Source: Ferroacidibacillus organovorans
Lineage (GTDB): Bacteria > Bacillota > Bacilli > Alicyclobacillales > SLC66
Assembly: GCF_001642725.1 (NCBI RefSeq)
Contig: NZ_LSUQ01000015.1
Span: forward strand, 1 to 54,191
DNA: 54,191 nucleotides
Direction of reading: 5' to 3'
In this document: piece after piece, positions 26,569 through 46,177 of the stretch
How the letters are laid out: each line of letters opens with the position of its first letter
How positions within the stretch are numbered: the first letter of the stretch is position 1
The notes under the pieces: model-generated
What the model saw: the letters and a program-made list of their open reading frames with translations, nothing else
Told to the model about the DNA's origin: nothing
Databases searched by the model: none
Made by a program: the position numbers and the translations under genes

Positions 26569-26759
26569 AAGAGTCATCGGAGTATCTGTGGCCAAGAGAA
26601 TTCCCAGCGAGTGACTGCATCACACTGACAATCCATCGTCATCGTGACGGGACAACGACGCGTCATGAGTCGTATCAGATCGCCATGGAGTTCACGGATA
26701 ACGATGATCAAGCGAGAGAGATCCTGGCGGATAGTTCTAAGCTGGCGGGGGCAAAATAA
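26565..26759 (+). CDS. Small hypothetical protein (64 aa)
   Basis: RBS GGAGAGG and ATGA coupling to the previous ORF. Confidence 0.5.
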   Translation: MKESSEYLWPREFPASDCITLTIHRHRDGTTTRHESYQIAMEFTDNDDQAREILADSSKLAGAK

Positions 26760-26782
26760 CCCATCCGTGGGGGTGGGCTATT

Positions 26783-26989
26783 TTGAGAAAAACTCCTAAA
26801 TTAACAAAGCTAACATTTATGGAAGTCGATCATCGCCATGACGTTACAGAACGCTGGATGCGTAGGATCATCCAACGCATCCTGATCCAGGCTTTGGAAC
26901 TTCCCACGCAGGATGTGGCCGATTTTTTGTGGAGTTCTCGTCAAGACAACAATCAGGCTGATGCTCATATTAGTGCAAAAGAGCATTGA
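26783..26989 (+). CDS. Small hypothetical protein (68 aa)
   Basis: TTG start after GGGGGTGG; co-directional with the recombinase cluster. Confidence 0.45.
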   Translation: MRKTPKLTKLTFMEVDHRHDVTERWMRRIIQRILIQALELPTQDVADFLWSSRQDNNQADAHISAKEH

Positions 26990-27034
26990 TAAAGCCGGAC
27001 TTAATGGAGTAACTCGATCTAGGAGGTTATCAAT

Positions 27035-27460
27035 GTGAGTAATGTATTAAAAGTAGCGCATTACACTCGTACCGTTGGTTCTTCGCAAAGTCTACGAATC
27101 CAAATAGAGGCTGCTCGATCAACGCTCAGTTCATATTCAATGGATCGAATTGTATTGTTCACTGATCGTGGTAGTGCGCGCCAGGGTAGAGGCCTTGATG
27201 CTCAACCGCAATTGAATCAGATGCTCGAGATGATTAAAGATGGAAAAATTGGCACAGTCGTCGTGTATGATCGCATGCGTTTAGCCGGAAATGTCGAAAC
27301 CTACTCGGGAATCATTAAGTTGTTCTATCGTTATCGCATCCATGTCCTATTTGTATCAAACTATGAAAGGCCTTTTCATCAGTCGAATCTCGCAGAATTA
27401 ATGGAATCGGCGATTTTACATGAGCAATTGCGTAGAATTGTGCGTCCCATGAAAGCATAG
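27035..27460 (+). CDS. Stand-alone serine recombinase (resolvase) catalytic-type domain lacking the catalytic Ser
   Basis: HYTRTVG (canonical YxRVS), FTDRGSAR, VVVYDRMRLAG; RBS AGGAGG; 141 aa. Confidence 0.75.
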   Translation: MSNVLKVAHYTRTVGSSQSLRIQIEAARSTLSSYSMDRIVLFTDRGSARQGRGLDAQPQLNQMLEMIKDGKIGTVVVYDRMRLAGNVETYSGIIKLFYRYRIHVLFVSNYERPFHQSNLAELMESAILHEQLRRIVRPMKA

Positions 27461-27520
27461 AGGCATCTGTACTTATGCTCACCGTGTACCGAATTTTCTG
27501 ATGTGGGGATGTGTCGTGAA

Positions 27521-28897
27521 ATGGGGAACCTAGGTATAGCGTTGTACATTCGTGTTAGCACAGCACAACAGAATATCGCGATGCAAGAGGGATCTGCTGG
27601 CTCGATACTGAGCCAGTTCCCCGCATCGCAGATTCATCGATTTATTGATGAAGGGGTTTCTGCTACAAAAACAAAATTACGTGAGCGTCCCGGATTGCAG
27701 AAGTTAATCCAATCCATTCAACACAGGGAAATTGGTACGGTTGTGGTGTATGATCGATCACGAATCTCGAGAAATACGTACGAGTATATCGCTTTTGTAA
27801 AAATCATCCAATCATATAACGTGCGAGTGATCTTTACTGGAGATAAGGAACCTGCATTTACTTCATCCCATTTCATTGAGGCTTTTTACGCGTTACATGC
27901 ACAGGGTGAAGGAAAAAAAATCAGGCAACGTGCGTTAGACGCGCAAAGACACTTTCCTTCCAAGTTAATTGGGTACATAAAAATAGAGGAAAATGGACAG
28001 GTGCGATATATACGTGATGAACCAAGGGCGACGTACATTCAATCCTTATTTGAAAAAATGGCGAATGTCTCAACAACCGTGGAAATGGAATCGGTTTTTT
28101 TGCAATATCGAGCAAAGATAAAGCGCCCATACCTACGTCTGTTTAAAATCCTTAATACTCCTTTTTATAGTGCGATCGTACTTAATGAAAATCAGTGCCA
28201 ACAGTTGGAGTATGTGGAGCCGATCACAACACAAGATCTTTACAATCGAGTTAAACAAAATTTGAATGTCATCGCAAGCGCAGATCAGCAAGTTAAAACG
28301 GAGCAACTAAGTTATCGCATGATGCCGGTATGCGGATATTGTGGAGAACCGATGAGCGTGCAATCCGGTGACTATTTTCATCGGAAAATGGCGACGTATG
28401 TGTGCAAAACAAAAATCCATAGGAGAAATGCGATTTCTATTCAAGAATATGAGAATGAAATTATGAGCATTATTTATGATTATTTGAAATCGATCGATAT
28501 AAAGAAAATGGAGAAGATGTGTTTTCAGTATATTAGGGAACAGGAAATGAAGTCTAAAAATAAAAAAAGGTCTTTGGAGCAAGCATTAGTTCAAATAAAT
28601 GTTGAGATCGTAACGTTTCTTGCGATTAAGAAAAGAACGGATGCCCTCTTAAAAAGGAAGGAACAACTTCAGGTGGCTTTACGGGATCAGGATGCAATGA
28701 TTAAACGTTTGGATGACATTAAGGTTAACTTTTCAGAAATGGCATATTTAATAAAGGTTCGTTTAATTTCGGATCTGATTCAAGACAGTGATCTGTGGGA
28801 CTTGGCGGAAGACTTGATTTGTCAAATTTCTGTTTTTAAATCAGAAATTAAGATGGTGTTACGATGCAAAACATTTATTCGAGAGGGTGCGTTCTAA
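27521..28897 (+). CDS. Large serine recombinase A (458 aa)
   Basis: YIRVSTAQQ, DEGVSA, RPGLQKL, DRSRISR; zinc ribbon CGYCG..YVC; coiled coil. Confidence 0.88.
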   Translation: MGNLGIALYIRVSTAQQNIAMQEGSAGSILSQFPASQIHRFIDEGVSATKTKLRERPGLQKLIQSIQHREIGTVVVYDRSRISRNTYEYIAFVKIIQSYNVRVIFTGDKEPAFTSSHFIEAFYALHAQGEGKKIRQRALDAQRHFPSKLIGYIKIEENGQVRYIRDEPRATYIQSLFEKMANVSTTVEMESVFLQYRAKIKRPYLRLFKILNTPFYSAIVLNENQCQQLEYVEPITTQDLYNRVKQNLNVIASADQQVKTEQLSYRMMPVCGYCGEPMSVQSGDYFHRKMATYVCKTKIHRRNAISIQEYENEIMSIIYDYLKSIDIKKMEKMCFQYIREQEMKSKNKKRSLEQALVQINVEIVTFLAIKKRTDALLKRKEQLQVALRDQDAMIKRLDDIKVNFSEMAYLIKVRLISDLIQDSDLWDLAEDLICQISVFKSEIKMVLRCKTFIREGAF

Positions 28898-28898
28898 A

Positions 28899-30386
28899 AT
28901 GCAGCAAGCGATTGGGTATTGTCGGAGATCAGATGCAAAACAGGAAAATAACCACTCGATTGAGATTCAAATGATGTCAATAAAGGATGCTGCTAAACGT
29001 TTTAACGTCGAAATTGTTGAGTTTTATGTTGACGATGCAGTGAGTGCCTATGCATATAACGCCAAGGAAAGATTAGCAATGAAACGTTTGAAAGATCGCG
29101 TGATCAATGATCATAACATTAAAGTTGTCTTATTTTATGACGAATCCAGAATATCAAGGCAAATCGATGATTTTGTGAATGATGTTTTCTCTGAAATAAA
29201 AGAATTAAGATCTGATGTTATATTCTATAGCACTGATAGCTCAACTCAAAAAGCTTGGGATCCGAATGATTTTGAGACGATGTTGCAGCTATTGCTGGCC
29301 AATGAAGAATCTACGAAAAAATCATCGCGTGCCATGGATTCTCAAAAGAATGCCTTGAGAAAAAATAAGCCGGTTCGACCTGGATCTAAAGCGCCGTATG
29401 GCTTTACTAAAGAAGGAAATACTTTGGTGCATAATGATCAGGCGCCAATAGTTTACTTTATTTTCCATATGGCGAGTTACGGGTACTCTGAAGAGCAGAT
29501 TGCTCAATATCTAAACCGAGCTGAAATTCCATCGCCATCCAATGGCTTATGGGCCCCTAGCAGTATCAATATGATCGTAACAAAGCGAGTATACGTTGGG
29601 GATCTCGAATGGTACGTGCGGAAAAATCGGAGAAATGGCGCAAGAAGCGATTCCACGCAGATTTCGTTGTTTCCCGCTATCTATGAGCCTATTATACCTT
29701 TAGATTTATGGGCCTTGGTACAAGAATTAAAAATGGAAAAAAAGACAACTAAACGCAAAATGAATTCACAATATATTTTACAGGGCTTGCTTAAATGTGG
29801 CCATTGTTTTGAAATACTCAATCACAAAAATTACACGCCAGGAAAGGCAAAAAAGCAATATGCAAACTATTCGTGCGAAAGTTGTGGTTATCGAATGGAT
29901 TCTCGAGACGTAGAGGAACGAATTGTTAAAATGATCGCTAAAGATTGGGAAATTCATCCCGATGATTTTGTGCGACAAGCTAGTGGCATGCTGAAGGATT
30001 GGATTAAATCACTGGAAAAGGAAATTTCGACTAAAGGGAAATATCTGCAATACGCAGAAGCTGAGTCGAAAAATACACCTCTAAGTCCGGAAATAAATGA
30101 TTCAATTGAGGCTGTACATCAATTAATCAATGATAAGGAGAAGTTAAAAACACAAATTTCTTTGTTTCTTTCTACAGAAGATGTGATCTGGAAAACACGG
30201 TTTGGCGACAAGATCGATATACAAAGTTTGAATACGACGGAGCGTCGAACGTTTTTATTTCAGATCGTGGAGGAAGTTCAAATTCGTAAAAACGCGAATG
30301 GGGGTTTTACGCCTAAAATTGTATACCGCGAAACCCCATTTATCTACTATAATAAAGTAATGAAGCCATCAGAAGAAACTTTATGA
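28899..30386 (+). CDS. Large serine recombinase B (495 aa)
   Basis: YCRRSDAKQ, DDAVSA, DESRISR, APYGF, YEPIIP recombinase domain, LLKCGHC..YSCESC zinc ribbon. Confidence 0.9.
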   Translation: MQQAIGYCRRSDAKQENNHSIEIQMMSIKDAAKRFNVEIVEFYVDDAVSAYAYNAKERLAMKRLKDRVINDHNIKVVLFYDESRISRQIDDFVNDVFSEIKELRSDVIFYSTDSSTQKAWDPNDFETMLQLLLANEESTKKSSRAMDSQKNALRKNKPVRPGSKAPYGFTKEGNTLVHNDQAPIVYFIFHMASYGYSEEQIAQYLNRAEIPSPSNGLWAPSSINMIVTKRVYVGDLEWYVRKNRRNGARSDSTQISLFPAIYEPIIPLDLWALVQELKMEKKTTKRKMNSQYILQGLLKCGHCFEILNHKNYTPGKAKKQYANYSCESCGYRMDSRDVEERIVKMIAKDWEIHPDDFVRQASGMLKDWIKSLEKEISTKGKYLQYAEAESKNTPLSPEINDSIEAVHQLINDKEKLKTQISLFLSTEDVIWKTRFGDKIDIQSLNTTERRTFLFQIVEEVQIRKNANGGFTPKIVYRETPFIYYNKVMKPSEETL

Positions 30387-30881
30387 ATTTGAAAGGTCAT
30401 CTATTGGAATAAATAATCATTTACATTTTGAACACGGCATTTCGTAAACCGAAAAAATTCCATGCGAATTGCAAATAAGGTAGGCCTCAAGGTTAATTAA
30501 AATAATAAACAAAATTATTAAAAACGATAAATTATATCTGAATTAAAAGCTTAGATGAATTACGCATATTATTTGACGTCTCGAATGGCAATGCTCAACG
30601 ATGTCAAGGTTATGTGATGCTTACGAGAAGAAGAAAATGATGATACATAACGAAGGGAAATATTCATACCTATTCATATTTTCGGTAGATGAAAAGGTGA
30701 AAACGTAGCAGATAGATGGGAACGATTAAAAGTCATAAAACGTTAAATATTCAATAATTATAATATTTGCGATCAATTAATTCGTCGATCTTTTGAAATT
30801 TAAAATGCATAATTATTCGCGGATATTTTGATCTTAATATTCTGTGATAAATTCGGGTTAGTGCCCAATATAACTATTTAG

Positions 30882-30933
30882 TTTTCGGTAAAGTACTTGT
30901 CTAAGGATCCTTAGACAAGTACTTTACCGAAAA
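30882..30933. repeat. Perfect 52-bp palindrome with no spacer
   Basis: TTTTCGGTAAAGTACTTGTCTAAGGA|TCCTTAGACAAGTACTTTACCGAAAA; 26-bp arms are exact reverse complements. Confidence 0.97.
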
Positions 30934-31290
30934 AAAGGCTTGAGAAAGCCTTGTATTAGCGGGATTCTTAGGACCTCCGTTTTGGGGTGATCGCTCAGTC
31001 AATCGGATGTTTCGGTTTAGCGACCAATCAAAAAAGCCGTATATTGACCGTTTATTCCGATAATAATGAGATAGGTATGGAATATTTGTATAAATATACG
31101 GTTCGATTTGCGAAAATAATCGGGGTTATGACAATATATTGCAGGAGATTAACGGATAAGACAATAAACGCCAAAATATTTTTTTTACAACTATGCTCGG
31201 CCGTAAGGATAAATTGGAGTTAGCTCCATTGACCCCAGGGAAGTTCCGCTGTCCTCGCAGTATCGCTCAGCAGAATGTGGTTTTCCGAAG

Positions 31291-31556
31291 TTTCGAAACC
31301 ATCGACTGGAACGACTTTTAAAGGAGATTGGACGCATGCAACTGTTCATTTTGGATGAGTGGGGCTCCGTAATCACGGACGACCAGATGGCGGCAGCGAT
31401 GATTGACCGTGTGGTCCATCATGGGCACCTGTTAAATTTCGGAGGAGTGAGTTACCACATGAAGGACGCGCTGATGAAACAGCGCTAAAAATTCCCTGTC
31501 AGGGGCATGGAGAATTACCAATGACAATAACGGGTATTTTAGCTTGACAAAATACA
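31291..31556 (+). pseudogene. istB: IS21-family istB remnant with internal deletion, plus IS21 terminal repeat region
   Basis: RLERLLKEIGRMQLFILDEWG joined to SVITDDQMAAAMIDRVVHHGHLLNFGGVSYH (stop 31488); end ...TTGACAAAATACA. Confidence 0.8.
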
Positions 31557-31920
31557 CAACCGCAGCATCGGTTCTCAATCGGGAAAGATGCGCATGACTC
31601 GCTCACGACGGCGAATTAAATTCTCTCGTTTAACCGCTCTACATTGTTCGTCGTTCGCAACTTCCGACCCAAAGTTGCGGGTAATGCCAAGACCGCAATC
31701 GCATCCTAAATCCTTCTTCCAACACTTTGATCATCTTGAAAAAGGGACTGCAATAGATCGAGATTTATCGTAAACTATGGTTGAGACCAATGGATTCTTC
31801 TTCTGTGAATAAGTGCTTGACACAACTATTCTACCAGAGGAAATCGAATGGCTCATCTTATTTAATAGAGTCTCGACAGCCTCGAGTTTGCGCACTTTTA
31901 CACATAATACCGGACATAAT
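31557..31920 (-). mobile_element. Internally deleted, degenerate IS256-family element
   Basis: IS256-like end GTCCGGTATTATGTGTAAAAGT on - strand; broken frames give AVLALP..RKLRTTNNVERLNE..IRRRERVMRIFP. Confidence 0.7.
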
Positions 31921-32260
31921 TCTGACGAATAGTATTCTCTACTCACGACGATAACTTTGCAGTACTCCTCACAATAAAGTTGCGTAGTCGCGATGTGGTT
32001 CAGTACAAATTGGACGGTTACGGAAAGCAAGGGTCTTACATCATTTGGGTCAGATGATTTGGGCTTCAGTGTGTGATTTCATGCGAATGTCATTTAACTT
32101 ATTTAAGACAGTGCTCTTTACCATGTATAGCTGCTTGACGTTCCATTCGGGTTTGACGGGCTAGATGATAAACCTGATTCTGTCAAGAAGTTCGAATATA
32201 TACATCAACTTAATTGATATCATCTATGAAACTTCATTTTATTGAGAGGAACATTATGAA

Positions 32261-33697
32261 ATGCGAAAAGCATACGATACATTTTTGCAATCCGAAGTAT
32301 CTGCGGATTTAGCTACCAAAGCTGGTAGTTTTGAACCGTATCGTTATGAGTGCGCACATTGTGGCGAAGAAGTTCGATTTGCTGCGGTGGGAAGCAATAG
32401 TATGGTTCCGCATTTCAGACATCGCAGCGGGAATAGTGATGTTGAATGCGAGTATTATCTTGGGCAGTATCGTGCTTTTAGCACGGATGCACGTTCAAGA
32501 AAAAGCAAAAGCGAAAGAGCCGAATTCTACTTTGATAACAATACAAAGATGTTTTATCTTGGGTTACGGTTAAGTGACGACGAGATTTCCGATTACGAAC
32601 TACGGTCTACTACTTTTGAGTTGAGAACCATGCCACATGCGGCCGCATTCTATTCATTGCGCATCAATGGCAGAAACTTTAGCCCTGATGTTCAGAGAAT
32701 GATACCTATAGAAGAATTTTCATACAACTATTTTTTATCTAATACACTGAATGACGTTAAGCGAAAATACGAGGTTTTCAATAATGCTAGAAATGGTGCA
32801 CCCACTTTTTTTAAGATGCAAATTGGGGATAGAGATTACAGGGCAAAATTGGTTCGCAGTTCTGTTCTCTATACTAACATCCCTTACCTTGTAGTATATC
32901 AGAGTCAGTATTGGGTTCCAGGAAATGTTCACTTGCCGAATGAAATCAACATTGAAAGTTCCTTCAAGTTTGAAACCATGGGCAGAAAATTCTTAGGAAA
33001 GGTTTTGACTATAACTTCGAAAACTGCACAAGTTGATTCATTATTGTTGTCTTGGGGATATCAGTTAGAATTCTCAGAAGAGCTAACACTGTTATGGCCG
33101 CCTTCGCCACTTGTTGACGAATCAATACTCGTTAATGCTGACAGTGCATATCTGTTCTCAACTTTTGAACTGCAAGCGCAGGGTAACATAAATGCTCATT
33201 CGCAGGACCTTAAGAAGATCGCCGACGGCATTTCAAAAGTACCGGTTCGGTCCAGGACGAAGGTGTATAGGAAAAACGCCGAACTGATGATTGAAAAGCG
33301 TGAACAGGCATCGGATTCTTATTCAGCTATTCCTGTGGCGCGTAAAGTTTCAAGAACTTATATTGTGCAGGATGACAGCACTTTTTTATTCAACCGTTCA
33401 GGTGTTTCACACTTAAATAAAGGTATGGCTGTCTTGCTGACCCCAGAAAGCGAAATAAGGCATTTTACATTTGGGTATCTTGATGGGTGCGTTACTCCTT
33501 CAAGTCATGATGCATTGGCAGGAGATCTTTTGCTTCAAGACCTTCTTATGTACTATAAGAGAAAGGAAACCTTTAAATGGGATGACTATGAATCGCTTGA
33601 ACTTAGTCAAACCGCCTTTCAGTACATCGAATCATGCGAAAAATCAGAACTGATAAACTCTGCGGCAAAATGCTTCATCGAGGAGGAGCGTATATGA
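32261..33697 (+). CDS. Defence operon gene 1: N-terminal CoiA-like zinc ribbon protein (DruB-like)
   Basis: YECAHCGEEV...PHFRH..C motif; RBS GAGAGG; first of five coupled genes; DruB assignment is from architecture and position only. Confidence 0.6.
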   Translation: MRKAYDTFLQSEVSADLATKAGSFEPYRYECAHCGEEVRFAAVGSNSMVPHFRHRSGNSDVECEYYLGQYRAFSTDARSRKSKSERAEFYFDNNTKMFYLGLRLSDDEISDYELRSTTFELRTMPHAAAFYSLRINGRNFSPDVQRMIPIEEFSYNYFLSNTLNDVKRKYEVFNNARNGAPTFFKMQIGDRDYRAKLVRSSVLYTNIPYLVVYQSQYWVPGNVHLPNEINIESSFKFETMGRKFLGKVLTITSKTAQVDSLLLSWGYQLEFSEELTLLWPPSPLVDESILVNADSAYLFSTFELQAQGNINAHSQDLKKIADGISKVPVRSRTKVYRKNAELMIEKREQASDSYSAIPVARKVSRTYIVQDDSTFLFNRSGVSHLNKGMAVLLTPESEIRHFTFGYLDGCVTPSSHDALAGDLLLQDLLMYYKRKETFKWDDYESLELSQTAFQYIESCEKSELINSAAKCFIEEERI

Positions 33698-35280
33698 AAT
33701 ACCTTCCTATGATGACAGAAGATGAAATCCGATATGTTTGCTCTGTTTTACCGCTTCGAGAGTCGGTGTTGTACTTCAAGCGCTATCCGAAAGATTTTGG
33801 AAAGGTCATGCCTGGTTTCAGGGCTACAAGCCTGAAGAGCCAAGAACAAGTTAGTGGCGTTTTGTTTAGAAGCCGCAATCAGCACTTTATCTCGTCGTTC
33901 ATAGAAAAACACATCATCCAGTGGATTGACGATATAGGCACGTCCATATCTGAAGAAATGGCCGCTGGCGCAAGCAAAGAATCTGCTTGGCTTCAAGTTT
34001 TGCCGCACTGTTTCTTTGTTGACAAGATTGGACTGTATTTTAAGCTGACGGGTGAAGAGCATTCTGAAGAGTTTATCGCAATACTCGGTGCAAGCATAAA
34101 GTTAACCAAGGATTCCGAAAAGGAACGCAAGCGTATGGAGGTTGTCCTCAAAGATAAGTCTTCTGAGGTCAGACGTGTTGAGGCAGAATTTGAGCGCGTT
34201 CAGTCAGAATATAATGAAACAAGAAAAAAACTGAGTGAACGTATTGGTGAAATAGAGGTCCTTAAGCGTACCAGTGCCGGCCTTGAAAATCTGAAAGAGA
34301 CTATCCAGTCCCTAGAACAGGCGATTGAAAGATTGAAGCAGAAAGCGCAAGAGCGTGAGGTCTATATACAAGGGCTAAAGGGTGAGTTGCTTTCTGCGAG
34401 AGACGAGCAACATCATCTTAAAGAGAAAATCAGAGAGAGCATTGAGAAACAACGGGCAAAGGAGTATATCGAGCAAGAGGTCTTTCGAAAACCAAGATGT
34501 CCAAAAGACATTGACGAATTTAAGGATTATTTGGGATATAACCTGCAAGACCTTGGTGTACCAACAGATGCTGACTATTACGTCCTCCTCAAGGATTATC
34601 TGGGTGAGGTATTGTTTCAAGGGAAGCCTGTTATTGTGAGCAGAAACACAGGAATGTCCCTAATGAAATGTGTGTCAAATACACTGATCAATACGACCGA
34701 TGTGCCAACGCTGGTTTTTGCTTCTGATATAACAGAAAGAGCAATTGATTCTTTCTTATCGCGGAGCAAGCGCATTGTTTGCTTGGATAATTTTATTGGA
34801 AATTATAATGAAACGACTCTGATAACAATTAGCGATAGGCATAAAGATAAGGTTATTTTCTTAACTGTCGCCTATGACCGAACGCTCCGCTATGTCCCAA
34901 ATGAGCTAATGAAATATTGTCATTACTTAAATCTTAACCGCATTGAGGAATTTACTGCTAATAAGGAATTGTCAGAGGACCCGTCTATCGTAGATGAAAC
35001 TGAAGTATCTAACGATATATTCACCCCGGATTCACGGTGGTCACAGCTGTTGAGAGAATTGCTTGATGAGTTCGGTATACGTGGTGCTTTGTCTGCATAC
35101 AAAAGCGCTCGTGTTTCTGATGAAATGAGCCTTTCCCGTTTATTGGCTTTTGATGTTCTCCCTTACTGCGTGGATGTTCTTCAGATTGCTCCGTTTAATA
35201 CTTCTGAGCGGTTAGTAAAGTATGCTGGAGATGGAGGCAGATGCTCCCATAAGGATTTGTTCAAGAGGTGGTTTGCGTGA
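33694..35280 (+). CDS. Defence operon gene 2: coiled-coil protein (DruC-like, 528 aa)
   Basis: Long E/K/R-rich heptad region; ATGA overlap and RBS GGAGGAG; possible degenerate NTPase C-terminus. Confidence 0.55.
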   Translation: MKYLPMMTEDEIRYVCSVLPLRESVLYFKRYPKDFGKVMPGFRATSLKSQEQVSGVLFRSRNQHFISSFIEKHIIQWIDDIGTSISEEMAAGASKESAWLQVLPHCFFVDKIGLYFKLTGEEHSEEFIAILGASIKLTKDSEKERKRMEVVLKDKSSEVRRVEAEFERVQSEYNETRKKLSERIGEIEVLKRTSAGLENLKETIQSLEQAIERLKQKAQEREVYIQGLKGELLSARDEQHHLKEKIRESIEKQRAKEYIEQEVFRKPRCPKDIDEFKDYLGYNLQDLGVPTDADYYVLLKDYLGEVLFQGKPVIVSRNTGMSLMKCVSNTLINTTDVPTLVFASDITERAIDSFLSRSKRIVCLDNFIGNYNETTLITISDRHKDKVIFLTVAYDRTLRYVPNELMKYCHYLNLNRIEEFTANKELSEDPSIVDETEVSNDIFTPDSRWSQLLRELLDEFGIRGALSAYKSARVSDEMSLSRLLAFDVLPYCVDVLQIAPFNTSERLVKYAGDGGRCSHKDLFKRWFA

Positions 35281-36296
35281 TGAATGACTTGTTGAGCACG
35301 ATGTCTATTGATATGGGCATCCCACCTTTCCGCAATGAAACCGAAGAGTCCTTTGTTTATAGACTCTGCTACTCAGCGTTAGGGCAATGGTGCCTGACTA
35401 CTGCGCGAAACTCGTTGGGCAATATTATTGGCACAACTAAGCATAATCAGACGATTGTGCTTAATGGCCTATTGGCAAGGTTCACAGAGTTATTCCCTTA
35501 CATTGCTCACAGATTTACTGATATCGGCAAACAGCAAGCAAGTCTTGCTGTCAGCATTCGTAGGGCGTACGAGGAAACAGGGTATTTGCTGACGCATGTC
35601 GATAATCATAATAAAATAGCAGACTTCGGTAGAAGTATTCAAATTGGGGACAAAGCGCTATTCTTTGGATTACCCAATACAACTATAGAGGTCAATGGAC
35701 TTGGGGTCTATGCAAACTCCACGGAGTATTTGGTTGATTTGAAAGACTTTCTGATTAGAGACACTCTAACGAGTGAGGAGTATTTTTGGTCACGGTTTGA
35801 CCCAATTGATTTTTACGAAAGAGACATTAGCTTAACCGATTTAGAATTTTTCAATCCAAAGTCAAATAATGTTCCGTCAATGTCATGGCGCAAGAAGCCG
35901 GAGACGGATTGTACCGTAGCACGAAAAACTGAAACGGGACCGTTCTACCGAATTATGAGAATTGACGATACGTTTCATTTTGCTGATGAACCAGTCGAGC
36001 AGCAAAATGACAGCTTCACCTCGCATGAGTATAGGCGGTTGTACTTCGCGTTGAAAACGCATTACGACAATCCCCTGAAAGCTACAATCACAAAATTTGA
36101 CGAGTTGTACTCGAAAATCCGAGTGGGAGGGCACTTGCCAAACCGCGAATACTACCTGCTGTTGCTTATGTCGTGGCCGGAAAACAACGCCTTCGACAAG
36201 GTGAATTTTATAATAAGAAATGACTTACTGCCACCAGCAATCAACGCACTTGAGAACATGGGCATAAAAATTAAGGGAGGACAAACGAATGAATAA
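35280..36296 (+). CDS. Defence operon gene 3: hypothetical protein (DruD-like, 338 aa)
   Basis: Start overlaps the previous stop; [11 protein letters not shown]-terminal motif; size and position directly before the helicase. Confidence 0.55.
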
Positions 36297-39200
36297 TCCT
36301 AGCGGTGTCCGTGAATACTATCAGGCTATTCGAGATAGGCTAAAGAACTACATTAAATCAGATTACTTGGCCAATAGCGAAACACTATTGCTGTATGTCG
36401 ATGACCTACTCGGCGAGTTGAGTTCTGAATCTACGAACATTGCGCGTGAACCATATATTGAAACATCTGCCTCCTACAAGAAAATACAAGATGGTATCAA
36501 AAACTCTTCACGCATTGAGCAAGGAGTTAAAGAGTCTTTGATCAAATTGGTTTCTAACGGACTCGGCATCTTTCCTGACCCCTTTGAGCATCAGGTTATG
36601 TCACTGGAGTGCTTCCTTGCAGGTCGGGACTTGTTTGTTTCGACAGGTACTGGCTCAGGTAAGACCGAGTGCTTTCTCTGGCCAATTATTGCGAAATGTT
36701 TTGATGAAGCTAAGAATCACCCGAAGACTTTCAGGAACGAAGCTGTGCGGACTCTCATAATCTATCCCATGAATGCGCTTGTCTCTGACCAACTGGCTCG
36801 TTTTAGAAAAATCATCGGTAGCACAGAATTTGTGGATATTTTTACGCGAGATACACACGCAACGCGCATACCTCATTTTGGCATGTACACAGGCAGAACG
36901 CCTTACTCTGGAGATATGAAACCGGCAAGTAGTCGAGAACTGGCTAGGACTTTCCGTGACAATTATTTGATCGATGAAACCGCTGATGCAAATAAACAAA
37001 GAAGGCAAGCTAACAACATTGAGGGACTAAAAAGCATTAATAAATACCCAGCCAGATTTGGAGAAGACGGGCTTCGCATTTTTATCGAGAATCTCGAACG
37101 CAACATACACAGGCCGTCACAATACGACGCAGAATTGATTACTCGTTTTGAGATGCAGAATTGTCCACCGGACATCCTGATTACCAACTATTCAATGCTG
37201 GAATATATGCTTATGCGGCAACGCGAAGCTAACATTTGGGACAAAACAAAGGAATGGCTTGACGCTTCACCGGACAACAGACTTCTTATTGTCTTGGATG
37301 AAGCACATATGTACCGTGGTTCTGCCGGTGGAGAAATTGCTCTTCTGCTGGAAAGACTGTTCTATCGATTAGCCATTTCTGCGGAAAGGGTTCAATTTAT
37401 CCTAACGACAGCGAGTATGCCGCAAAACGAGAAAGAATCAATTAATGCTTTCTACACAGGGCTAACAGGGAAAGATTCTGCTTCTAGCGAATTTATCTTC
37501 GGATCAAAAGAACAGATACCAGACGAGCAAGAAGTAAGAACGGATATCGATTCATTGGCTTCGATAGGTTCTGACCAAGCCCAAGGAGATGAAATAACCA
37601 AACGGATTGTCGCTTTTGCGTCGTCCGTGTTCAAAACGGCTTTGCCTTCAGATATAAGTCAAAGCGACGCCAAAGTATGGCTTTATGACAATCTCCCGAA
37701 ATATGAGGCATTTGTTAATCTGAATAAACTCTGCCGTGATGGTGCGAAATCCTACAACGAAATTAGAAATGCACTTTTTGGAAGCGAAGCCAATAGCGGA
37801 AAGGCTCTTGACGCTCTGTTGGCATTAGTTTCGTTGGCTGCAAAAGATGACACTATTCTGTTCCCTGTCAGGCTACATATGTTCCTTCGCGGTTTACAAG
37901 GACTTTACGCTTGCTCCAATCCTAAGTGTACTTCTGCAAAGCACTCAGCGAGTGAGAAACTACCACTTGGAAGAGTAATCTCTATTCCAAAGGCCAAGTG
38001 TGAATGCGGCGGCAGAGTATACGAACTCGTCAACCACATTAAGTGCGGTGCGCTTTATTTCAGAGTTTACGTTCAGAAAAACGAAGGGCGCCCATTCTGG
38101 TATGTTTTCCCGCAACGCGGATTAAGCGGAGATGCCGGCTCGCTTAAAGAAATGTTGCTATATGTGATTCCGGAAAACTATCAAAAGGGGAAGAAAGACA
38201 AGATTGGGGCGCTCGACCCCCTAACGGGTAAGCTGTATTTAACTCCACAAGACGATGAGTCTTTACTTCATGTAGTCTACAACTTCGGGGTATGCCCCAA
38301 ATGCAAAAAGCCGATGCCCTTGAAGAAGCCTGTTGACTTGTCAACAAAGGGCAATATACCGTTTTATAATCTCACAAAGGCTCAGTTTGAACTTCAGTCT
38401 CCAAAATCAGACCTTATCAATCAAGGCAAAAAGGTCTTGTTATTCTCAGACTCGCGCCAGAACGCGGCCAAACTTGCATTAGACCTCTCAAAATCGTCGG
38501 ATGCAGATGCTTTCCGTCAAGCGGTGATGCTTGCGTCGCTGCTGTTGGAAGTGAATGGCAAAGAGCATTCTTTGGCAGACCTGTACCCTGCGTTTTTAGA
38601 TGTTTGTATCCAGTACAACCTTACTTTCTTTAGCGGAAAGAGCAAGGAAAAATTTTCTGACGATAAACGCAAGTTTGGTGCCTCAAAATCACGGGCAGAA
38701 AAACGTGGTCGAGCCGTTGAATATGCATCTCTTTCGTCAGAATACCGCTCTTTGCCCGATGAATATTACGAGCAACTACTTACATTCTTTACAGAAAGTC
38801 CGCGTTCGTTTAAGGATATTGGAATTGGTTTCTTGGCGCCAGTTTCCGCAGTTCTGGATGATTGCTTGTATGACTTAGAAGATGCCGAGATTAGTATTGG
38901 TAATACTATGTTGTATCAGTTACTTGTCCTGATGTTTTGGGATGTTATGGACGACAGTGCCGCCTTGGGAGAGACCATTCAAGATGATGTTCGAAAAGGA
39001 TTGCCTGGGCGGAGCAAAGGCCAGGTTTTTGGTTTGAGTTATGACTTTTCTACTTCCCTAGACAAGGCACTACTTCAGCGCATTCAGGAGTTACTTGCTC
39101 TTGATAACAGTTCAATGGGCAAGATTGTTGAAAAAGTTCGTGACTTGTTTTTTGCTTCATCGTCCACGAATCGGTTTTACATTAAATTGAGCGCAGTGAA

Positions 39201-41475
39201 GATTGAGTTAGCAAGCGCAGATTTTACATGGTACCGTTGCGTCAAATGCGGTAAAATGTCACCGTTCAAGATTGGAAATTACTGTGGTGCTTGTTTTGAT
39301 TCGGTTGACTTGGTTTCCATTGGAAAAAACGAACTTGCCCGTTTCGATTTCTGGCGAATTCCGGTTCTGAACGCACTGAAAAAAATCGAGAGTATTCACA
39401 CCATTGATACTGAGGAACATACTGCGCAGCTTTCCCATAAAGAAATTCGCAGTGACACTTGGAGTCGTACAGAAAAATATGAAATGCGGTTTCAAGACAT
39501 TAACGCAGGCGAAAATGGCGAAGATGCGATTGACGTGCTGAGTTGCACGACGACGATGGAAGTCGGTATTGACATTGGGTCTTTGACCGCTGTTGGGCTT
39601 CGCAATATACCGCCAATGAGGGAAAACTATCAGCAAAGGGCAGGGCGTGCTGGCCGTAAGAATACGGGGATATCCACAATCGTAACCTATGCTTCGGGCG
39701 GTACACACGACAGCCATTATTTCCAGCACCCAGATGAGATGATATCAGGGGCTCCGCGTAAACCGTGGATAGACCGAGACAATCCCAAAATCAAGCAGCG
39801 CCATGTAAATATGTTGGTGCTGAATGGATTTATGTCAACGCAAGATATGAGAAGTCAATTTGATGGCATCGTCGATATAGGAATCATCACATTCTGCGAA
39901 TCATACGGCGAGAACTTTGTTGAATTCGCGGAGCAATTTGCGCGTTGTGATACGGGTTTGCCAACAACCAAAACGATTGAACATTTCCGAGAAATATGCG
40001 GGCTTGTTTTAACAGAAGGCAGGCGTGACGAGTACATTAACGACAACAATGAGACACCGGCGTTTGATATCTTTTACCGAGAGGGTTTTATTCCTTCGTA
40101 TTCATTCCCGAAGAATGTCGTCAAGTTCTTCGTTGAAAAAGAATCTGAAAGAGGAAAGAATGCGCCAAGAGAAATTCAGTATGCTCCCGAGCGTGACATC
40201 GCCGTGGCACTCAGTGAATACGCGCCTGGGCGCTTTGTTACCATTGATAAGAAAATCTTCAAAAGCGGTGGGATTTACGCAAATCCCCGTCCACGTGGGT
40301 TTGAAGGGAATCAGGCTGAGTTTTACTTCAAGAATAATGACTACTACAAAGACATCTTGATCTGCTCCGAGTGCAATTGGTTTGCCTTACAGGAGGAGGC
40401 CCATCGTTCGAAATGTCCGTATTGCGGGTCTGATATTGTAAAAAACAAAATGTTGCGTCCTTGGGGTTTTTCCCCTATGAAAGGCGATGAGGTGAAGTTC
40501 AAGGATGAGGACGAACAGTATACCTACGCCGAAGCGCCGTATTACTCCTATGTGCCTGAAGATACACGGATGGATAGTTTCGGGCAGAGCAAAATACGCT
40601 TTGCCAATCTACCCGATCGAAAGGTATTAACTGTTAATATGGGCACGGGCAAGGACGGCTTCAACGTCTGCAAGAAGTGCGGCGGAGCAGAAGTTGCTGA
40701 CACTAACGGAAATGGCGTCTATTCATTTTCACAGCCTTACCATGATAATCATCCGATTTGTCGGCATGACGGGACGGTTGCCCCTGGTATCTATTTGGGA
40801 TATGAGTTCCTAACAGATATGTTTATGCTCGACATATCCTACGATTCAACAAAACTCGTTGGGAATAGAAGCGCGGAAGAAAAAAGCATTCTCCGTGCTG
40901 CCGTAACTACTCTGCATGAAGCTTTTAAAAAAGCCGTCTCACTTGTCTTGGATATCGATTATAACGAAATTAGCGGAGGTTGGCGTCCGAGAATCAAGAC
41001 TGACGGGAATTCACATATAGAGATGTTCTTCTATGATAATCTGACCAGTGGTGCGGGTTACTCTTCACTGATTGGCTCGATTTTGGACAGAGTTCTTGAG
41101 AGGGCGCGAATTATACTGACGGGCTGTGAGTGCTCATGTTCTTGCAGAAACTGCTTGGACAATTACTGGAATCAGAGACACCATCAGTTATTTGACCGTC
41201 ACCTGGGGTTGCAACTGCTCGACTACGCCCAATATGGGCATTTGCCCGGTGACTATGATATAGCAGAACAGCAAGAATATCTTCGCCCATTGCAGAAACT
41301 GATATACGAAGATTCAGGTTTGCCATCGAACCAATCCATCTCGTTTGAGGTTATTCCTGCAATGCGAAAGAAGCCAGACAACACACGAAGCCAACTTTAT
41401 CTTTATCCATACGATTTATCTGACTGGCTTCCAAATGCGTTTATGACATATAGAAATCTTGTGAACGAGGGGTAG
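36289..41475 (+). CDS. druE: Large DEAD/DEAH-box helicase with C-terminal DUF1998 domain (DruE-like, 1728 aa)
   Basis: [50 protein letters not shown]; several CxxC pairs; [12 protein letters not shown] and [14 protein letters not shown]1998 signature. Confidence 0.8.
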
Positions 41476-41479
41476 TAAT

Positions 41480-42322
41480 ATGGCTAAGTCGCTTTCGCCC
41501 CTTCGTTATCCGGGCGGAAAATCGAAAATCTACGAAAAAGTTAAGAACCTAATCATTGCTAATGGCTATGAAGACAGAACCTATGTCGAGCCTTTTGCCG
41601 GCGGTTTTGGTATAGGGATTGGTTTGCTATGCGAAGGCATAGTGAAGGTGGCCATTCTGAACGATTTCGATGTGCATATTTATCATTTTTGGCACTCCGT
41701 TTTGAATGACACGGAAAACCTCCTTCGCTTGATTACTGATACGCCGATAACGATTGAAGAACGAGAAAGGCAAAAGCTGAATTACAGAGATGTGGACGCA
41801 GACCCTTTGAGCGATGGATTCGCAACGCTATTTTTGAACCGCGTTAATTTTTCCGGAGTTATTAAAGGCGGACCTATTGGGGGTTTGGCTCAAACAGGAA
41901 CCTATAAGGTTGACTGCCGCTTCAACAAAGCAGATATACGTAGTAAAATCGAGACAATCGCCAAGCTTAAAGGGAAAATAAAGCTGTACAACAAAGATGC
42001 TGGTTATCTTATAAGAATGAGTTTGATGAAGATGAAAGCACCGATGTTTCTTAACATTGATCCACCATATGTTGTAAAGGGCAGTCAGCTTTATACAAAT
42101 TTTTTCACTGAAGGAGACCATCTTAACCTTCAGCGAGTTATCATCAGGCACTTGGGTGAAGAGTTCCCTTGGATAATTACTTATGATGTATGCAATTTGG
42201 TCAGGGATTTATACAAGCGATTTCATATGCAAGAATATGGGATTACTCACAACGCCGGAGGTACCGTTCAGGGAAAAGAGATTGTTATTACAAATATCCC
42301 GACGGGCAGATTTGTATGGTGA
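41480..42322 (+). CDS. Dam-family (D12 class) N6-adenine DNA methyltransferase
   Basis: SPLRYPGGKS, YVEPFAGG, LNDFD, FLNRVNFSG, DPPY; starts 4 bp after the helicase stop. Confidence 0.9.
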   Translation: MAKSLSPLRYPGGKSKIYEKVKNLIIANGYEDRTYVEPFAGGFGIGIGLLCEGIVKVAILNDFDVHIYHFWHSVLNDTENLLRLITDTPITIEERERQKLNYRDVDADPLSDGFATLFLNRVNFSGVIKGGPIGGLAQTGTYKVDCRFNKADIRSKIETIAKLKGKIKLYNKDAGYLIRMSLMKMKAPMFLNIDPPYVVKGSQLYTNFFTEGDHLNLQRVIIRHLGEEFPWIITYDVCNLVRDLYKRFHMQEYGITHNAGGTVQGKEIVITNIPTGRFVW

Positions 42323-42420: not shown

Positions 42421-43653
42421 TAGTATAACATTTCATAAATAATGATATTACGAAGAGGAACCGGTCGCGGATTGCATTTTATACTTCCACCAGAAGGTTA
42501 CAGGGTTCCGATTTACCTCTTCCAAGTAGAGCAGAATGCGTTCTCTCAGTTCTTCTTTGGATTGGACCCGTATGCATGCTCTTCGTCATCTTAGTAAAAA
42601 AGGATTCAATTATATTGAGCTATGATGCATGCTTTGGGGTGAAAACAAATTCAAACCGATTCGGCACGGTTTGCAGATAAGCCCTCGTTTCTTTTGAGGT
42701 ATGGGCGGAGTGATTGTCCAAAATAAATTGAATTTTGGCGGTGTTCGGATATTCTTCATTAAATTTCTTGAGATAGGCTACGAATTCACAACTGCGATGG
42801 CGATCCTCAACACTCCCGATAACTCGCCCCGTCATGAGATCAATGCCTGCCAATAGGCTGAGCGTGCCGTAGCGTACGTACTCATGATCCCTCTGTACGG
42901 TAGCATGTTTGCCCGGTACAGGCGGCAAGTCTGGTGCCGTGTTGCCAATGGCTTGAATGCCCGGCTTCTCATCGTACGAGACGACGACCATCTCCCGCGT
43001 TTGAGCAGACCCATCCTGAAGGCACCACTCAACCTGTTGGTACACGATCAATACCTGCGCCATCTTCTCATCGAAGTCTGGATCTCGCCGCTCCAAGTAG
43101 TACTCAACCTTGTGCGGTTTAATGTCCTGCCCTGACAAAAGGCGGGATATCGTTGCAGAACCAATGTTTACAGCGCTGGGATGCCCCGCATAAAGCGCCT
43201 TTTCCCTCACGTGACGACTCAATAAACGCGTTGTCCATACTTCATAGGAATACCCAAGATCCTTTGGTTTCTGACAGGCCAAGGAGGTGATCCAAGCGTG
43301 TGCATCCGGCGTAATTTCAGGGGGTCTGCCCGATCGTTTAAGATCATCCAATGCTGCAATCGGTCCAAGTTCCAGCGCCTTATTCAGCAGACGATAGATC
43401 TTAAGGGTCTTCATGCTCAACTGTTTACCGATCTCGTTTGGATGCTGCCCTTCGTCCAACAACAAAAGCAGTTTCGCTCGTTCTACACGGCGAGCTTGGT
43501 CGGTGCGAGAACTGGAAACGCGAGATAGAACATCATGTTGATCCTGCGTGATTTCAAGTTGGGTTTTGGATCGCTGAAAGGGCATAGGGATTCCTCCTTA
43601 CCCTAGGTTCCATATCCAGCATATAATATCGATATTTATGGATCGATCTACTA
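42421..43653 (-). mobile_element. IS630-family insertion sequence
   Basis: Imperfect terminal IRs (TAGTA......CATAAATA..GATATTA), each end within CTAG (TA target); encloses a transposase. Confidence 0.8.
42447..43585 (-). pseudogene. IS630 transposase with a premature stop and downstream frameshift
   Basis: RSGRPP, DEKPGIQA, HEYVRYGT, ILDNHSAH; TPKHAS then TAG where W is expected; homology continues as LNIIESFF..RVQSKEELRERI. Confidence 0.8.
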
Positions 43654-43657
43654 GATA

Positions 43658-45280
43658 GTTACCCCTGAAAAAGTCGGGCATTTTTTGACAAAACAAAAAG
43701 GAATTCGGCACCTCAAAATGGAAATTGTTATTGTCGAGACAACAAAGTTCCAAACCCCGAGGGAAGAATTCCTTTTGTTAGGAATTCAACGCAAAGCCTC
43801 GGGAATCCTTCCTTGAGGTGAAGAAAATGTTGAAACTTCGCGACGTACAACTTACGATGTGGGACGCTATTCTGCTGGAAGCTGTACGTGCACTTCCTGC
43901 CGAACTTGCGATCATCGACGCGCTTTTGGATGACGAACGTTTTCTTCAGCCGTTCGTTAAGCTACACCCGAAGGGTAAGAAAAGCGGCCGTCCCACGTTC
44001 GCTATTGAAAAGTATGTACGTCTCATGGTGCTTAAGCACAAATACAATTTGGGTTACGAATCGCTGGTAAAGGAAGTTGGCGACAGCATCACCTGGCGGA
44101 TGTTTTGCCGGATCGCAATCGATGAACTCATGCCGGATCCATCCACGCTCATCTATGCTCGCAAACGCTACGGCAACAAGATCGTCGAAGATGTCAACGC
44201 CGCATTGGTAAAGCAACTCGAGGAAAAAGCGATTCTGAAAACCCGTAAATTCCGGACCGACACAACGGTAGTGGAATCCGACATCCATCACCCGACAGAC
44301 GCCACGCTGCTACAAGATGGTGTAAAAGTCATGAGCCGAATCATTCGAAAAATCCGTAAGGTCGCTTCTCATGCCGTTCAAGGAATGGAGGATCGCACCT
44401 TGGAAATCAAAGAAAAGATTCTGTCCATTGCCAAGGTCCTTCGTCGGCGCACTCGCGAATCATGGGAAGAAGTCGACAAGATTACGCAAAGCGTGATCGA
44501 AATAACCGAAAACGTCGTTTCTCAAGCCCATGCCGTCATCGAGAAATTACAAAACCAAAGGAAGACCATTGTTCAGCAAAAGAAAGAACGTCTCGTTACC
44601 GCGGTTCAGCTTACGGAGAAGCTGCTGGATCAAGCGAGGCAGGTCGTTTCCGGTAACCGAATCATTGCAGATCGCATGGTTAGTTTCTTTGACCCGGAAG
44701 CAAGACCGATCAAAAAAGGGAAGCTCGCGAAAGGTACCGAGTTCGGGTACAAAGTTCGGATCGACGAGACAGAAAGCGGCTTCGTTACCGGCTATGCCGT
44801 GTATGAAGGAAATCCGTCGGATGATGAATTGCTCGTTCCTGCCATTGAAGAGCACATCAAGCAGTTCGGAAAAGCACCGCAGGCCGTAGCCACTGACCGC
44901 GGTTTTTCGAGTAAGAAAAACGAAATCGCGATGACTGAACTTGGTGTTAAACGGGCCAGCCTACCAAAAAAAGGTAAGAAAGGCGCTGCCCGAACGGAAT
45001 ATGAAAATGAAAAATGGTTCAAGGACTTGCAGCGTTACCGTGCAGCTGGAGAAGCGAAGATTAGCCTTCTCAAGCGGAAGTACGGTTTGAACCGCAGCAG
45101 GTACCGGGGATTTGCTGGCTCAAAATGCTGGATCGGATTCGGAATTCTGACCCATAACTTGCAAAGGGCGGCAAAGATGCTCCAAAACTAAGGTAAATAC
45201 GGAAAAACGGGGAGAATCCCCCCAAAAATCAGTGCGGCAGGAAGATGCATTTTTGAAATTCATACTTTTTCAGGAGCAAC
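43658..45280 (+). mobile_element. ISNCY/IS5-like insertion sequence, apparently intact
   Basis: IRs GTTACCCCTGAAAAAGT / ACTTTTTCAGGAGCAAC; flanking direct repeat TAGATA (43652-43657, 45281-45286). Confidence 0.85.
43818..45191 (+). CDS. DDE transposase (ISNCY/IS5-like)
   Basis: GRPT, PDPST, DTTVVESDIHHPTD, RPIKKGK..EFGYK, TDRGF, RAAGEAKISLLKR. Confidence 0.9.
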   Translation: MKKMLKLRDVQLTMWDAILLEAVRALPAELAIIDALLDDERFLQPFVKLHPKGKKSGRPTFAIEKYVRLMVLKHKYNLGYESLVKEVGDSITWRMFCRIAIDELMPDPSTLIYARKRYGNKIVEDVNAALVKQLEEKAILKTRKFRTDTTVVESDIHHPTDATLLQDGVKVMSRIIRKIRKVASHAVQGMEDRTLEIKEKILSIAKVLRRRTRESWEEVDKITQSVIEITENVVSQAHAVIEKLQNQRKTIVQQKKERLVTAVQLTEKLLDQARQVVSGNRIIADRMVSFFDPEARPIKKGKLAKGTEFGYKVRIDETESGFVTGYAVYEGNPSDDELLVPAIEEHIKQFGKAPQAVATDRGFSSKKNEIAMTELGVKRASLPKKGKKGAARTEYENEKWFKDLQRYRAAGEAKISLLKRKYGLNRSRYRGFAGSKCWIGFGILTHNLQRAAKMLQN

Positions 45281-45289
45281 TAGATAGTT

Positions 45290-46177
45290 TCACCATTTTA
45301 CGGATTTATAAATTGAATTCCACGACTTTAGCAATCCCACGAGGCTGTCCCCTTTGATTACGTGTAGGTAAGGGAAAGGGTGTCTCGCCACCTCCATAAG
45401 CGTCTGGTATCCATAACTCCCAATACCAATGTAAGATCCGGAGAAGCTAACACCGTCACTAAATTCCACTGTAGTTAGCATTGGACCGTAGGAAATCGAA
45501 TCGTTGTGCTGAGTTTTCCGAAATATTGGGTACGGTAAACTAGGTATCCCAGGGACAACCTCGCGGCCAAATAGAGTTTCGTCAAAGTAATAGGAAAAGA
45601 CTATTGCAAAAGAACCAAACGCGCGTTTCCAACGGGAATTTAGCGGATGGTGCGACATTGATATTCTTGCATACATATTGCCGTCTGTACCCACGGTGTA
45701 CGCTGTAATTCGGTTAATTATTGGCAAAGAAGCGACGGGAGGATCCCATGCAGTTGCGTATACTAGTGGAGCGGCTTGAGAAAGTGCGGTTAACGCCGCG
45801 AATTTGCAATCCGCCAAGGCTTCGCTAATAGTAACAGGACGTAACCCTCCCGCCTTACTTACGTTTGCAATAAAGGATGCCTCTGGATAGGTAACATGGA
45901 ATATCACTTTTCCCATGATAGCATAGCCATAAAGTATCGTCTGAAGGAATTGCTCTTCGGACATGCCATATTTTTTATGAAAAGTTGAAGCTTCATTTGG
46001 ATTTAAAAATTGCGACATTGACATGTGAGCCACAGTTAAGAAAGCATCCACTTCCTTCCTGCTCGCGTTCTTACCTAATCCGCCATAATGAGATGCTGCT
46101 ATAGAAGGCTGGGGCGGGAAGCATTCGATTAACAGTAAGCAAATCACCAAAACCGCAACTACCCGTATCTTTTTCAT
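45290..46177 (-). CDS. Hypothetical exported protein (295 aa)
   Basis: MKKIR plus hydrophobic stretch plus IAA signal-peptide pattern; RBS AAGGAG; no recognised domain. Confidence 0.7.
   Translation of the reverse strand: MKKIRVVAVLVICLLLIECFPPQPSIAASHYGGLGKNASRKEVDAFLTVAHMSMSQFLNPNEASTFHKKYGMSEEQFLQTILYGYAIMGKVIFHVTYPEASFIANVSKAGGLRPVTISEALADCKFAALTALSQAAPLVYATAWDPPVASLPIINRITAYTVGTDGNMYARISMSHHPLNSRWKRAFGSFAIVFSYYFDETLFGREVVPGIPSLPYPIFRKTQHNDSISYGPMLTTVEFSDGVSFSGSYIGIGSYGYQTLMEVARHPFPYLHVIKGDSLVGLLKSWNSIYKSVKW

Follow-up and report, generated by a model that had tools for sequence, protein, structure and literature searches.

A Druantia type I-like operon of Ferroacidibacillus organovorans that lacks DruA and ends in a D12-class adenine methyltransferase: probable member of a distinct defence lineage

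The DNA analysed here, called the window below, is a stretch of 54,191 nucleotides of Ferroacidibacillus organovorans (contig NZ_LSUQ01000015.1 of assembly GCF_001642725.1), and our subject is an operon within it that resembles the defence system Druantia type I but has no DruA and carries an added adenine methylase. In the open reading frame (ORF) listing, five co-directional intact genes span 32261-42322 on the plus strand:

32261..33697, plus strand: gene 1, DruB-like protein, 478 amino acids (aa)
33694..35280, plus strand: gene 2, coiled-coil protein in the DruC position, 528 aa
35280..36296, plus strand: gene 3, DruD-like protein, 338 aa (ATG at 35280)
36289..41475, plus strand: gene 4, DruE, a superfamily 2 (SF2) helicase of the YprA/MrfA family, type I (DruE1) clade, 1728 aa
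41480..42322, plus strand: gene 5, D12-class (Dam-family) N6-adenine DNA methyltransferase, 280 aa

An earlier note on this DNA had described five tightly coupled genes for a zinc-ribbon protein, a coiled-coil protein, a protein of no named family, a DEAH helicase with DUF1998 and a DPPY methylase. The ORFs and junctions are as it described, all genes being intact, and both motifs and Pfam agree with its protein descriptions. Genes 1 and 2 overlap in an ATGA (gene 1 stop TGA at 33695-33697, gene 2 ATG at 33694), the stop of gene 2 (35278-35280) shares one base with the gene 3 ATG at 35280, genes 3 and 4 have 8 bases in common (ATG of gene 4 at 36289, stop of gene 3 at 36294-36296), and gene 5 begins with an ATG at 41480, after a gap of 4 bases beyond the gene 4 stop (41473-41475). 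Purine-rich stretches like Shine-Dalgarno sequences were seen by eye before genes 1, 2, 3 and 5. Alternative starts exist for gene 2 (ATG at 33634, giving 548 aa) and gene 3 (GTG at 35268, giving 342 aa); in related loci, the gene 2 orthologs begin at the gene 1 stop. A promoter and terminator scan of the locus gave counts at or below the shuffled expectation.

Druantia type I, described by Doron et al. in 2018, reportedly consists of DruA-DruB-DruC-DruD-DruE and is said to have been shown experimentally to be a defence system. The order and sizes of its four downstream genes recur in the window, including a coiled-coil protein in the DruC position. In contrast, the lineage studied here is without DruA, a GNAT-like DUF4338 protein, and has an added D12 adenine methylase. 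Four DruA-type loci with full-length DruE1-type helicases, on plasmids of Ralstonia (pUW163a), Pseudomonas (P. putida pKF715A), Nitrosococcus and Haloplanus, were compared with it; we call their type canonical. In all four, an annotated DruA stands at the head of the operon. The PLSDB tables, which are incomplete, list no methylase gene within 8-9 kb of them, and tblastn with the methylase of the window found none near them either. On the Nitrosococcus plasmid pNWAT01 (L078) the gene order is DruA, a 955-aa protein (perhaps DruB and DruC fused), one of 360 aa, and DruE. The Haloplanus plasmid (L079) carries a divergently transcribed DruA of 705 aa, proteins of 484 and 611 aa and DruE, with no separate gene of DruD size.

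Gene 4 matches the PADLOC model DruE1 (PDLC00013) with 1951.7 bits over model positions 3-1775 of 1776, as against at most 655 bits for the best DruE2, DruE3 and DruE4 models (641-655 for DruE2) and at most 71 bits for the DrmA, DpdJ and BrxH models. It contains the Pfam domains DEAD, Helicase_C and MZB (the former DUF1998), is 34-35% identical over residues 1-1181 to canonical DruE (here, as for the other proteins, that of Ralstonia and Pseudomonas), and matches the solved chains 9tu7 (E 3e-75), 9wae (E 1.5e-69) and YprA 6znp (E 2e-13). Its helicase motifs are kept in related sequences, with GSGKT and QRAGRAGR in 29/29 and DEAH in 28/29 (DESH in the last one). A Pfam scan of segments of the C-terminal tail at E <= 1 revealed no nuclease. 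According to passages of Bell et al. (PMC12458937), DruE belongs to the YprA family, together with DNA-repair helicases, and the type I enzyme is predicted to carry a Vsr domain that has been inactivated. In the part of Hu et al. (10.64898/2026.05.12.722862) that deals with the enzyme, type III DruE is a 3'-to-5' helicase that needs a 3' overhang.

The product of gene 5 belongs to Pfam family PF02086, MethyltransfD12 (E 2.6e-16; 60.6 bits for a cut-off of 22). It carries FAGGF (residue 39) and DPPY (residue 194), and both FxGG and DPPY are kept in 29/29 methylase sequences. The solved chains nearest to it are 7m6b and DpnM (2dpm). Its score with the NCBIfam dam subfamily, 57 bits, lies below the cut-off of 114.85; it is thus no close ortholog of Dam and should not be taken to be specific for GATC. 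Its PADLOC matches are PD-Lambda-5_B (PDLC04018; 323 bits, full length), which is the closest family, and MTase_II (249 bits), with no others. PD-Lambda-5_B is the modification gene of PD-lambda-5, which itself differs from the operon: according to passages of Vassallo et al. 2022 (PMC9519451), it is a two-gene, compacted prophage system resembling restriction-modification and abortive infection, without a helicase, and its cloning required a host with mrr deleted. No match to PD-Lambda-5_A was found among the 12 window proteins scanned.

Gene 1 matches the PADLOC model DruB1 (PDLC00003) over its full length (E 2.3e-220). This model is lineage-specific, canonical DruB matching PDLC00005 instead. 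The protein is built of an N-terminal zinc ribbon (CxxC-~15-HFRH-~8-C), a tandem beta-sandwich body and a C-terminal helical part, and it has in common with canonical DruB (L009, L010) an N-terminal signature of CxxC, ~15 residues, HFxH, ~8 residues and C-E-x-[YF]. Beyond this motif, neither blastp nor hhalign detected any similarity between the two, and gene 1 belongs to no Pfam or NCBIfam family. Alignments of 42 and 37 sequences, respectively, served for AlphaFold (AF2) models of genes 1 and 3. The model of gene 1 has a predicted local distance difference test (pLDDT) score of 75; its beta-rich body (residues 86-478) is confident while residues 1-85 score below 50, although the zinc-ribbon region that they cover is the most conserved part of the protein. 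Foldseek against the PDB and VIA-align, both with the whole-chain model (>400 residues), returned generic immunoglobulin-like folds, the best with Z 5.6 over 74 residues, and a profile search against PDB sequences gave 0 matches. A conjectured likeness of gene 1 to CoiA-type nucleases was supported by no tool and was dropped.

Gene 3 matches the PADLOC model DruD1 (PDLC00008) with E 6.9e-160. Its similarity to canonical DruD is confined to the C-terminal ~85 residues, where it was detected by the canonical model PDLC00009 (E 2.5e-5, residues 248-336), by hhalign (E 1.2e-3) and by blastp (E 0.003-0.007); the two are the best reciprocal hhalign pair. Gene 3 has no Pfam family. Its AF2 model is a moderate alpha/beta one (pLDDT 69.6) for which Foldseek against the PDB and VIA-align gave no fold match (best Z 3.8), and a profile search of PDB sequences gave one match, at E 0.11. 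An exhaustive profile search with the DruD alignment retrieved 351 cluster representatives, 184 of them at E <= 1e-10 and 53 at E <= 1e-30. PDLC00008 is the best match for all of the 17 members of this DruD lineage that were sampled, with PDLC00009 as a further match for 6 of them. Since the profile has so many representatives and every one sampled falls to the same model, the lineage must be much wider than the loci sampled here. Two distant members, P0075 and P0059, gave no match in tblastn against plasmids.

Gene 2 is only positionally equivalent to DruC, as far as can be told from its sequence. It is shorter (528 aa against about 625 aa for canonical DruC), and its match to the canonical model PDLC00006, 13.5 bits (E 0.004), lies inside the coiled-coil region. 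With hhalign, canonical DruC was matched at E 0.016 with a probability of 2.8%, and with blastp not at all. No PADLOC model was significant in a search at E <= 10, the weak matches being to the coiled coils of LmuB/JetC and Rad50/SMC, and the ESM Atlas holds unnamed or hypothetical clusters only. Residues 121-240 of gene 2 are the most variable stretch of the operon, with 31-33% mean pairwise identity. Of the "DruBCDE core" of the earlier note, homology thus holds for DruE, for the C-terminal ~85 residues of DruD and for the N-terminal zinc ribbon of DruB, but gene 2 is not detectably DruC.

The accessory genes do not point to another described system, since genes 1, 3 and 4 all match Druantia models; PADLOC names genes 1 and 3 DruB1 and DruD1. 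The database nevertheless keeps two separate sets of models, PDLC00002, 00005, 00006 and 00009 for the canonical system and PDLC00003 and PDLC00008 for the present lineage. Druantia type II consists of DruM-DruF-DruG-DruE, DruM being a cytosine methylase. It is likewise a Druantia system with a DNA methyltransferase of its own, but it is distinguished by DruF and DruG, a DruE2-clade helicase and the cytosine specificity of its methylase, where the present operon has DruE1 and a D12 N6-adenine methylase. PADLOC found no match to DruM, DruF or DruG among the same 12 window proteins. In the portion of PMC10273834 concerned, type II and Hma are the methylase-containing Doron-type systems. DISARM, BREX and ARMADA also combine a methyltransferase and a large helicase in a multi-gene operon with an unknown or non-classical restriction step, and DrmA and ArmA share the YprA family of DruE (passages of PMC12458937 and PMC12904381); they differ in having PglX-type or other methylases and other partners (DrmB/C/D, BrxHII).

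In the literature searched we found no description of a Druantia system without DruA and with an adenine methylase. The main text of PMC12458937 contains none of the terms "Dam", "adenine" and "DUF4338"; in the passages shown of its supplements, "Dam" and "D12" stand only inside strain names and accession numbers, and the part seen of supplement file 1 gives helicases by class, without their neighbours. The PADLOC paper (PMC8565338), in the passages concerned, adds only Druantia type IV. The suggestion that the operon is an undescribed subtype would thus hold for the architecture but not for all of its parts, as the DruB and DruD models of PADLOC-DB v2 were evidently built from this lineage.

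The association of the methylase with the core genes was analysed in 75 related loci, 8 from a one-genome-per-species scan with gene 1 (in Christensenellaceae, other Bacillota, Negativicutes and Flavobacteriaceae assemblies) and 67 from a metagenome scan with the gene 1 alignment. A locus was taken as informative when it contained the C-terminus of DruE and at least 150 further bases. This was so for 37 of the 75, the other 38 being contigs that end too early or decayed copies. A D12 methylase directly follows DruE, in the same gene order, in 37/37 informative loci, and in 29/29 once loci sharing at least 97% identity in their DruB regions are merged. Such recurrence goes far beyond chance. 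The Dam-family gene, whose conservation beside homologs the earlier note had proposed to check, is therefore constant, and an intact four-gene core without methylase was found in 0/37. The linkage persists while DruB identity between loci drops to 33.5%. The spacing between DruE and the methylase is about 1-12 bases in 34/37 loci. In the remaining ones, L002:15745-16536, L055:9615-10439 and L057:11950-12774, the methylase is 40-43% identical to that of the window, and the spacer before it measures 493 bases in L002 and 104 in L055 and L057, which are a near-identical pair. A different D12 enzyme thus occupies the same slot, and the modification function appears to have been kept through replacement.

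Among the 29 non-redundant sequences, the mean pairwise identity is 78% for DruE, 65% for the methylase, 64% for DruD, 54% for DruB and 50% for gene 2. The distances of the four core genes correlate with one another at Spearman 0.74-0.85, those of the methylase with the core genes at 0.39-0.61 (permutation p <= 0.003). The decayed copies L008/L052, L037, L066, L014, L029 and L076, which arose independently, are all damaged on the helicase side. DruB residues 1-250 are fused to methylase residues 84-280 in L008/L052, and residues 1-313 to methylase residues 47-211 in L037; in L066, DruB 1-305 is joined to DruE from residue 76. L014 has a DruE without about residues 354-1444, and the 147 bases past DruE show the start of a methylase at the contig end. 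L029 has an internal deletion in gene 2 and L076 a 4.4-kb insertion in DruB. A methylase that shields the host from the other parts of the operon would be expected to leave such an asymmetry, although the numbers are small. Three of the decay breakpoints fall within DruB residues 250-313.

DruA is missing from all these relatives. Canonical DruA gave 0 tblastn matches in the 75 loci, and PF14236 was found in 0/96 ORFs within 4 kb upstream of DruB (30 loci) and in none of 21 flanking ORFs scanned, while the same model scores 272-281 bits on the real DruA of L009 and L010. The host assembly (96.8% complete) gave no PF14236 match either, a result that is weak alone as the controls of that pipeline were also silent. 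The genes upstream of DruB are unrelated between loci: they include a MurC-like ligase, GatB, argininosuccinate lyase, pyruvate:ferredoxin oxidoreductase, AbiE pairs, RhuM, relaxases and recombinases, and in L001 and L005 housekeeping genes stand next to DruB. Because relatives with such different upstream neighbours also lack DruA, the gene is natively absent from the lineage rather than lost through insertion sequence (IS) activity.

On both sides the flanks vary between housekeeping genes, mobile elements and other defence genes, with no recurrent sixth gene. The downstream ORFs are heterogeneous and show no recurrent endonuclease family (27 of the 42 ORFs listed for 27 loci, and one ORF of the window, were scanned); the methylase is therefore not half of a conventional type II pair. 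RhuM-family genes (PF13310) are the only recurring neighbour, adjoining the module in 6 loci, downstream in L003, L005 and L064 and upstream in L036, L041 and L060. AbiEi/AbiEii pairs lie upstream in L022 and L028, and in L026 AbiEii is preceded by a DUF6088 gene. L018 has a gene for a Schlafen AlbA_2 ATPase that overlaps the end of the methylase, L028 has RloB and AAA_21 genes downstream, and a second N6_N4 methylase is found at L056:11293-11895.

The surroundings of the operon in the window contain the following features:

23193-23277: tRNA-Leu(GAG) (ARAGORN)
23408-24430, plus strand: tyrosine integrase (Pfam Phage_integrase)
25171-26304: second tyrosine integrase (Pfam)
27035-27460, 27503-28897, 28887-30386: three tandem serine-recombinase genes
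30387..32260: upstream gap of 1.9 kb with no intact ORF and no druA (stop-to-stop listing, six frames)
42620..45191: two downstream transposase genes, DDE_3 (minus strand) and DDE_Tnp_1 (plus strand) (Pfam)
45290-46177, minus strand: 295-aa ORF between two transposase genes, no Pfam or PADLOC match

The GC content is ~55% to the left and 37-45% from about 25 kb onwards, so that the operon lies inside the low-GC part. This stretch looks like an integrated island, of which the tRNA-Leu gene and the tyrosine integrase are the probable left end; no direct repeat marking an attachment site was found. The island head, 23193-30386, is unusually rich in recombinases, and several transposases also lie in the low-GC stretch. 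The upstream gap contains two fragments identified by eye only, one at 31213-31488 (plus strand), which we take to be a C-terminal piece of an IstB-like protein, and one at about 31616-31705 (minus strand), presumably the tail of an IS256-like transposase. A search for near-identical DNA gave no match in E. coli genome and plasmid collections, no copy of the operon turned up in 40 relatives of the host, and no RNA runs containing the locus are listed. Three metagenome runs contain 0.20-0.57 of the words sampled, from which nothing is concluded.

On this evidence we consider the operon likely to be an intact member of a distinct, horizontally mobile Druantia type I-like defence lineage, a five-gene unit from which DruA is natively absent and whose mode of action would be epigenetic. 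The linkage suggests the role of N6-methyladenine (m6A) in self/non-self discrimination that the earlier note had put forward. The methylase would mark a short motif in the host DNA with m6A. DruE, as an ATP-driven helicase of the YprA family, probably moves 3'-to-5', judging by homology to the solved type III DruE. With the three accessory proteins it would engage unmethylated incoming DNA and block its replication; the zinc-ribbon and beta-sandwich protein DruB and the fast-evolving coiled-coil protein may be the likeliest sensing or scaffolding parts. Restriction could proceed by unwinding or sequestering the DNA, or by recruiting a host nuclease, and as no nuclease is recognisable it may act without one of its own.

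Several points weigh against this interpretation. Defence, methylation and the target motif are functions that we infer for the lineage from sequence. Pfam, profile and fold searches revealed neither a nuclease nor another effector among the five proteins. Passages of 10.64898/2026.05.12.722862 state that type III Druantia does not methylate its host, so that DruE helicases need no epigenetic mark. The related loci share ancestry, and the 37/37 are not 37 independent events; the looser co-divergence of methylase and core would also fit a looser association. No hypervariable target-recognition block was seen in the methylase, where variation is spread evenly, and there is thus no sign of specificity diversification. 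Lastly, a result that speaks for the interpretation, the m6A signal at CAGCTGNC that a preprint (Ojima et al., 10.1101/2024.04.14.589459) reports on expression of canonical Druantia I, is a single unreplicated PacBio observation.

The authors of 10.1101/2024.04.14.589459 call the gene behind that signal unknown because the system "lacks a Methylase domain". Also in favour of the interpretation, a 2026 review (PMC12904381, in part) counts Druantia among the methylation-based systems, its restriction mechanism being unknown. In our comparison DruA and the methylase are complementary, DruA alone being present in 4/4 loci and the methylase alone in 37/37. As these are two deep clades, this amounts to roughly one evolutionary switch and not to many independent ones. 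It is conceivable, though we hold it unlikely, that one type of system uses either DruA or the D12 methylase as its modification module, DruA being the enzyme or specificity subunit behind the canonical "m6A" signal. Passages of PMC10853773 describe DUF4338 as a GNAT-like acetyltransferase domain. DruA might in that case place a non-methyl group, for example an acyl group, on the N6 of adenine, and the lineage with the methylase would be a natural experiment that brings this to light.

The five genes could also form a functional unit that serves something other than phage defence, such as competition between mobile elements, plasmid exclusion, or repair or replication restart with methylation as a strand or age mark. 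The DNA-repair helicases in the YprA/MrfA family of DruE (PMC12458937, in the passages cited above) would fit this, as would the absence of an effector nuclease and the position of several loci on mobile elements with relaxase, recombinase or integrase genes. We nevertheless judge it rather improbable: the Druantia type I models score DruE far above all others, the neighbours are often AbiE, RloB/AAA_21, Schlafen-AlbA_2, ResIII-PLD and RhuM genes, as in defence islands, and the distribution is patchy and horizontally transferred, while canonical type I is a shown defence system according to parts of 10.1101/2024.04.14.589459.

The methylase might instead be a hitch-hiking orphan or a regulatory Dam-like enzyme that stays beside DruE through shared descent only. 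All the loci belong to one lineage, so that the linkage may have been inherited and not selected, and the distances of the methylase follow those of the core less closely than the core genes follow one another (0.39-0.61 against 0.74-0.85). D12 methylases are, moreover, often orphans. For a passenger, however, the linkage is strict, with zero exceptions in 37 informative loci despite DruB identities as low as 33.5%, and with a spacing of 1-12 bases in 34/37. FxGG and DPPY are kept in 29/29, and in L002 and L055/L057 a different D12 enzyme holds the same slot while the other flanks are unconserved. We hold this explanation, too, to be rather improbable.

That this was once an ordinary DruA-B-C-D-E system which lost druA through upstream IS activity and happens to have an unrelated methylase alongside is barely credible: there is indeed IS-like debris and no ORF in 30387-32260, with transposases downstream, but no related locus has DruA (0 tblastn matches in 75, 0/96 upstream ORFs), two of them (L001, L005) have housekeeping genes beside DruB, and DruB, gene 2 and DruD are of a sequence lineage distinct from the DruA-associated ones.

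Annotation that makes DruA a requirement will overlook this lineage or give it a wrong label. Druantia type I ranks among the most powerful broad-range phage defences assayed in E. coli, and the lineage bears on how it discriminates self from foreign DNA. A sister lineage in which DruA has given way to an ordinary adenine methylase, present in every sampled copy, provides comparative evidence for an epigenetic mode of action, akin to restriction-modification, in type I-like Druantia systems. The lineage would also offer a simpler experimental model, in which the modification enzyme is obvious, and in which both the self-mark and the role of DruA become testable.

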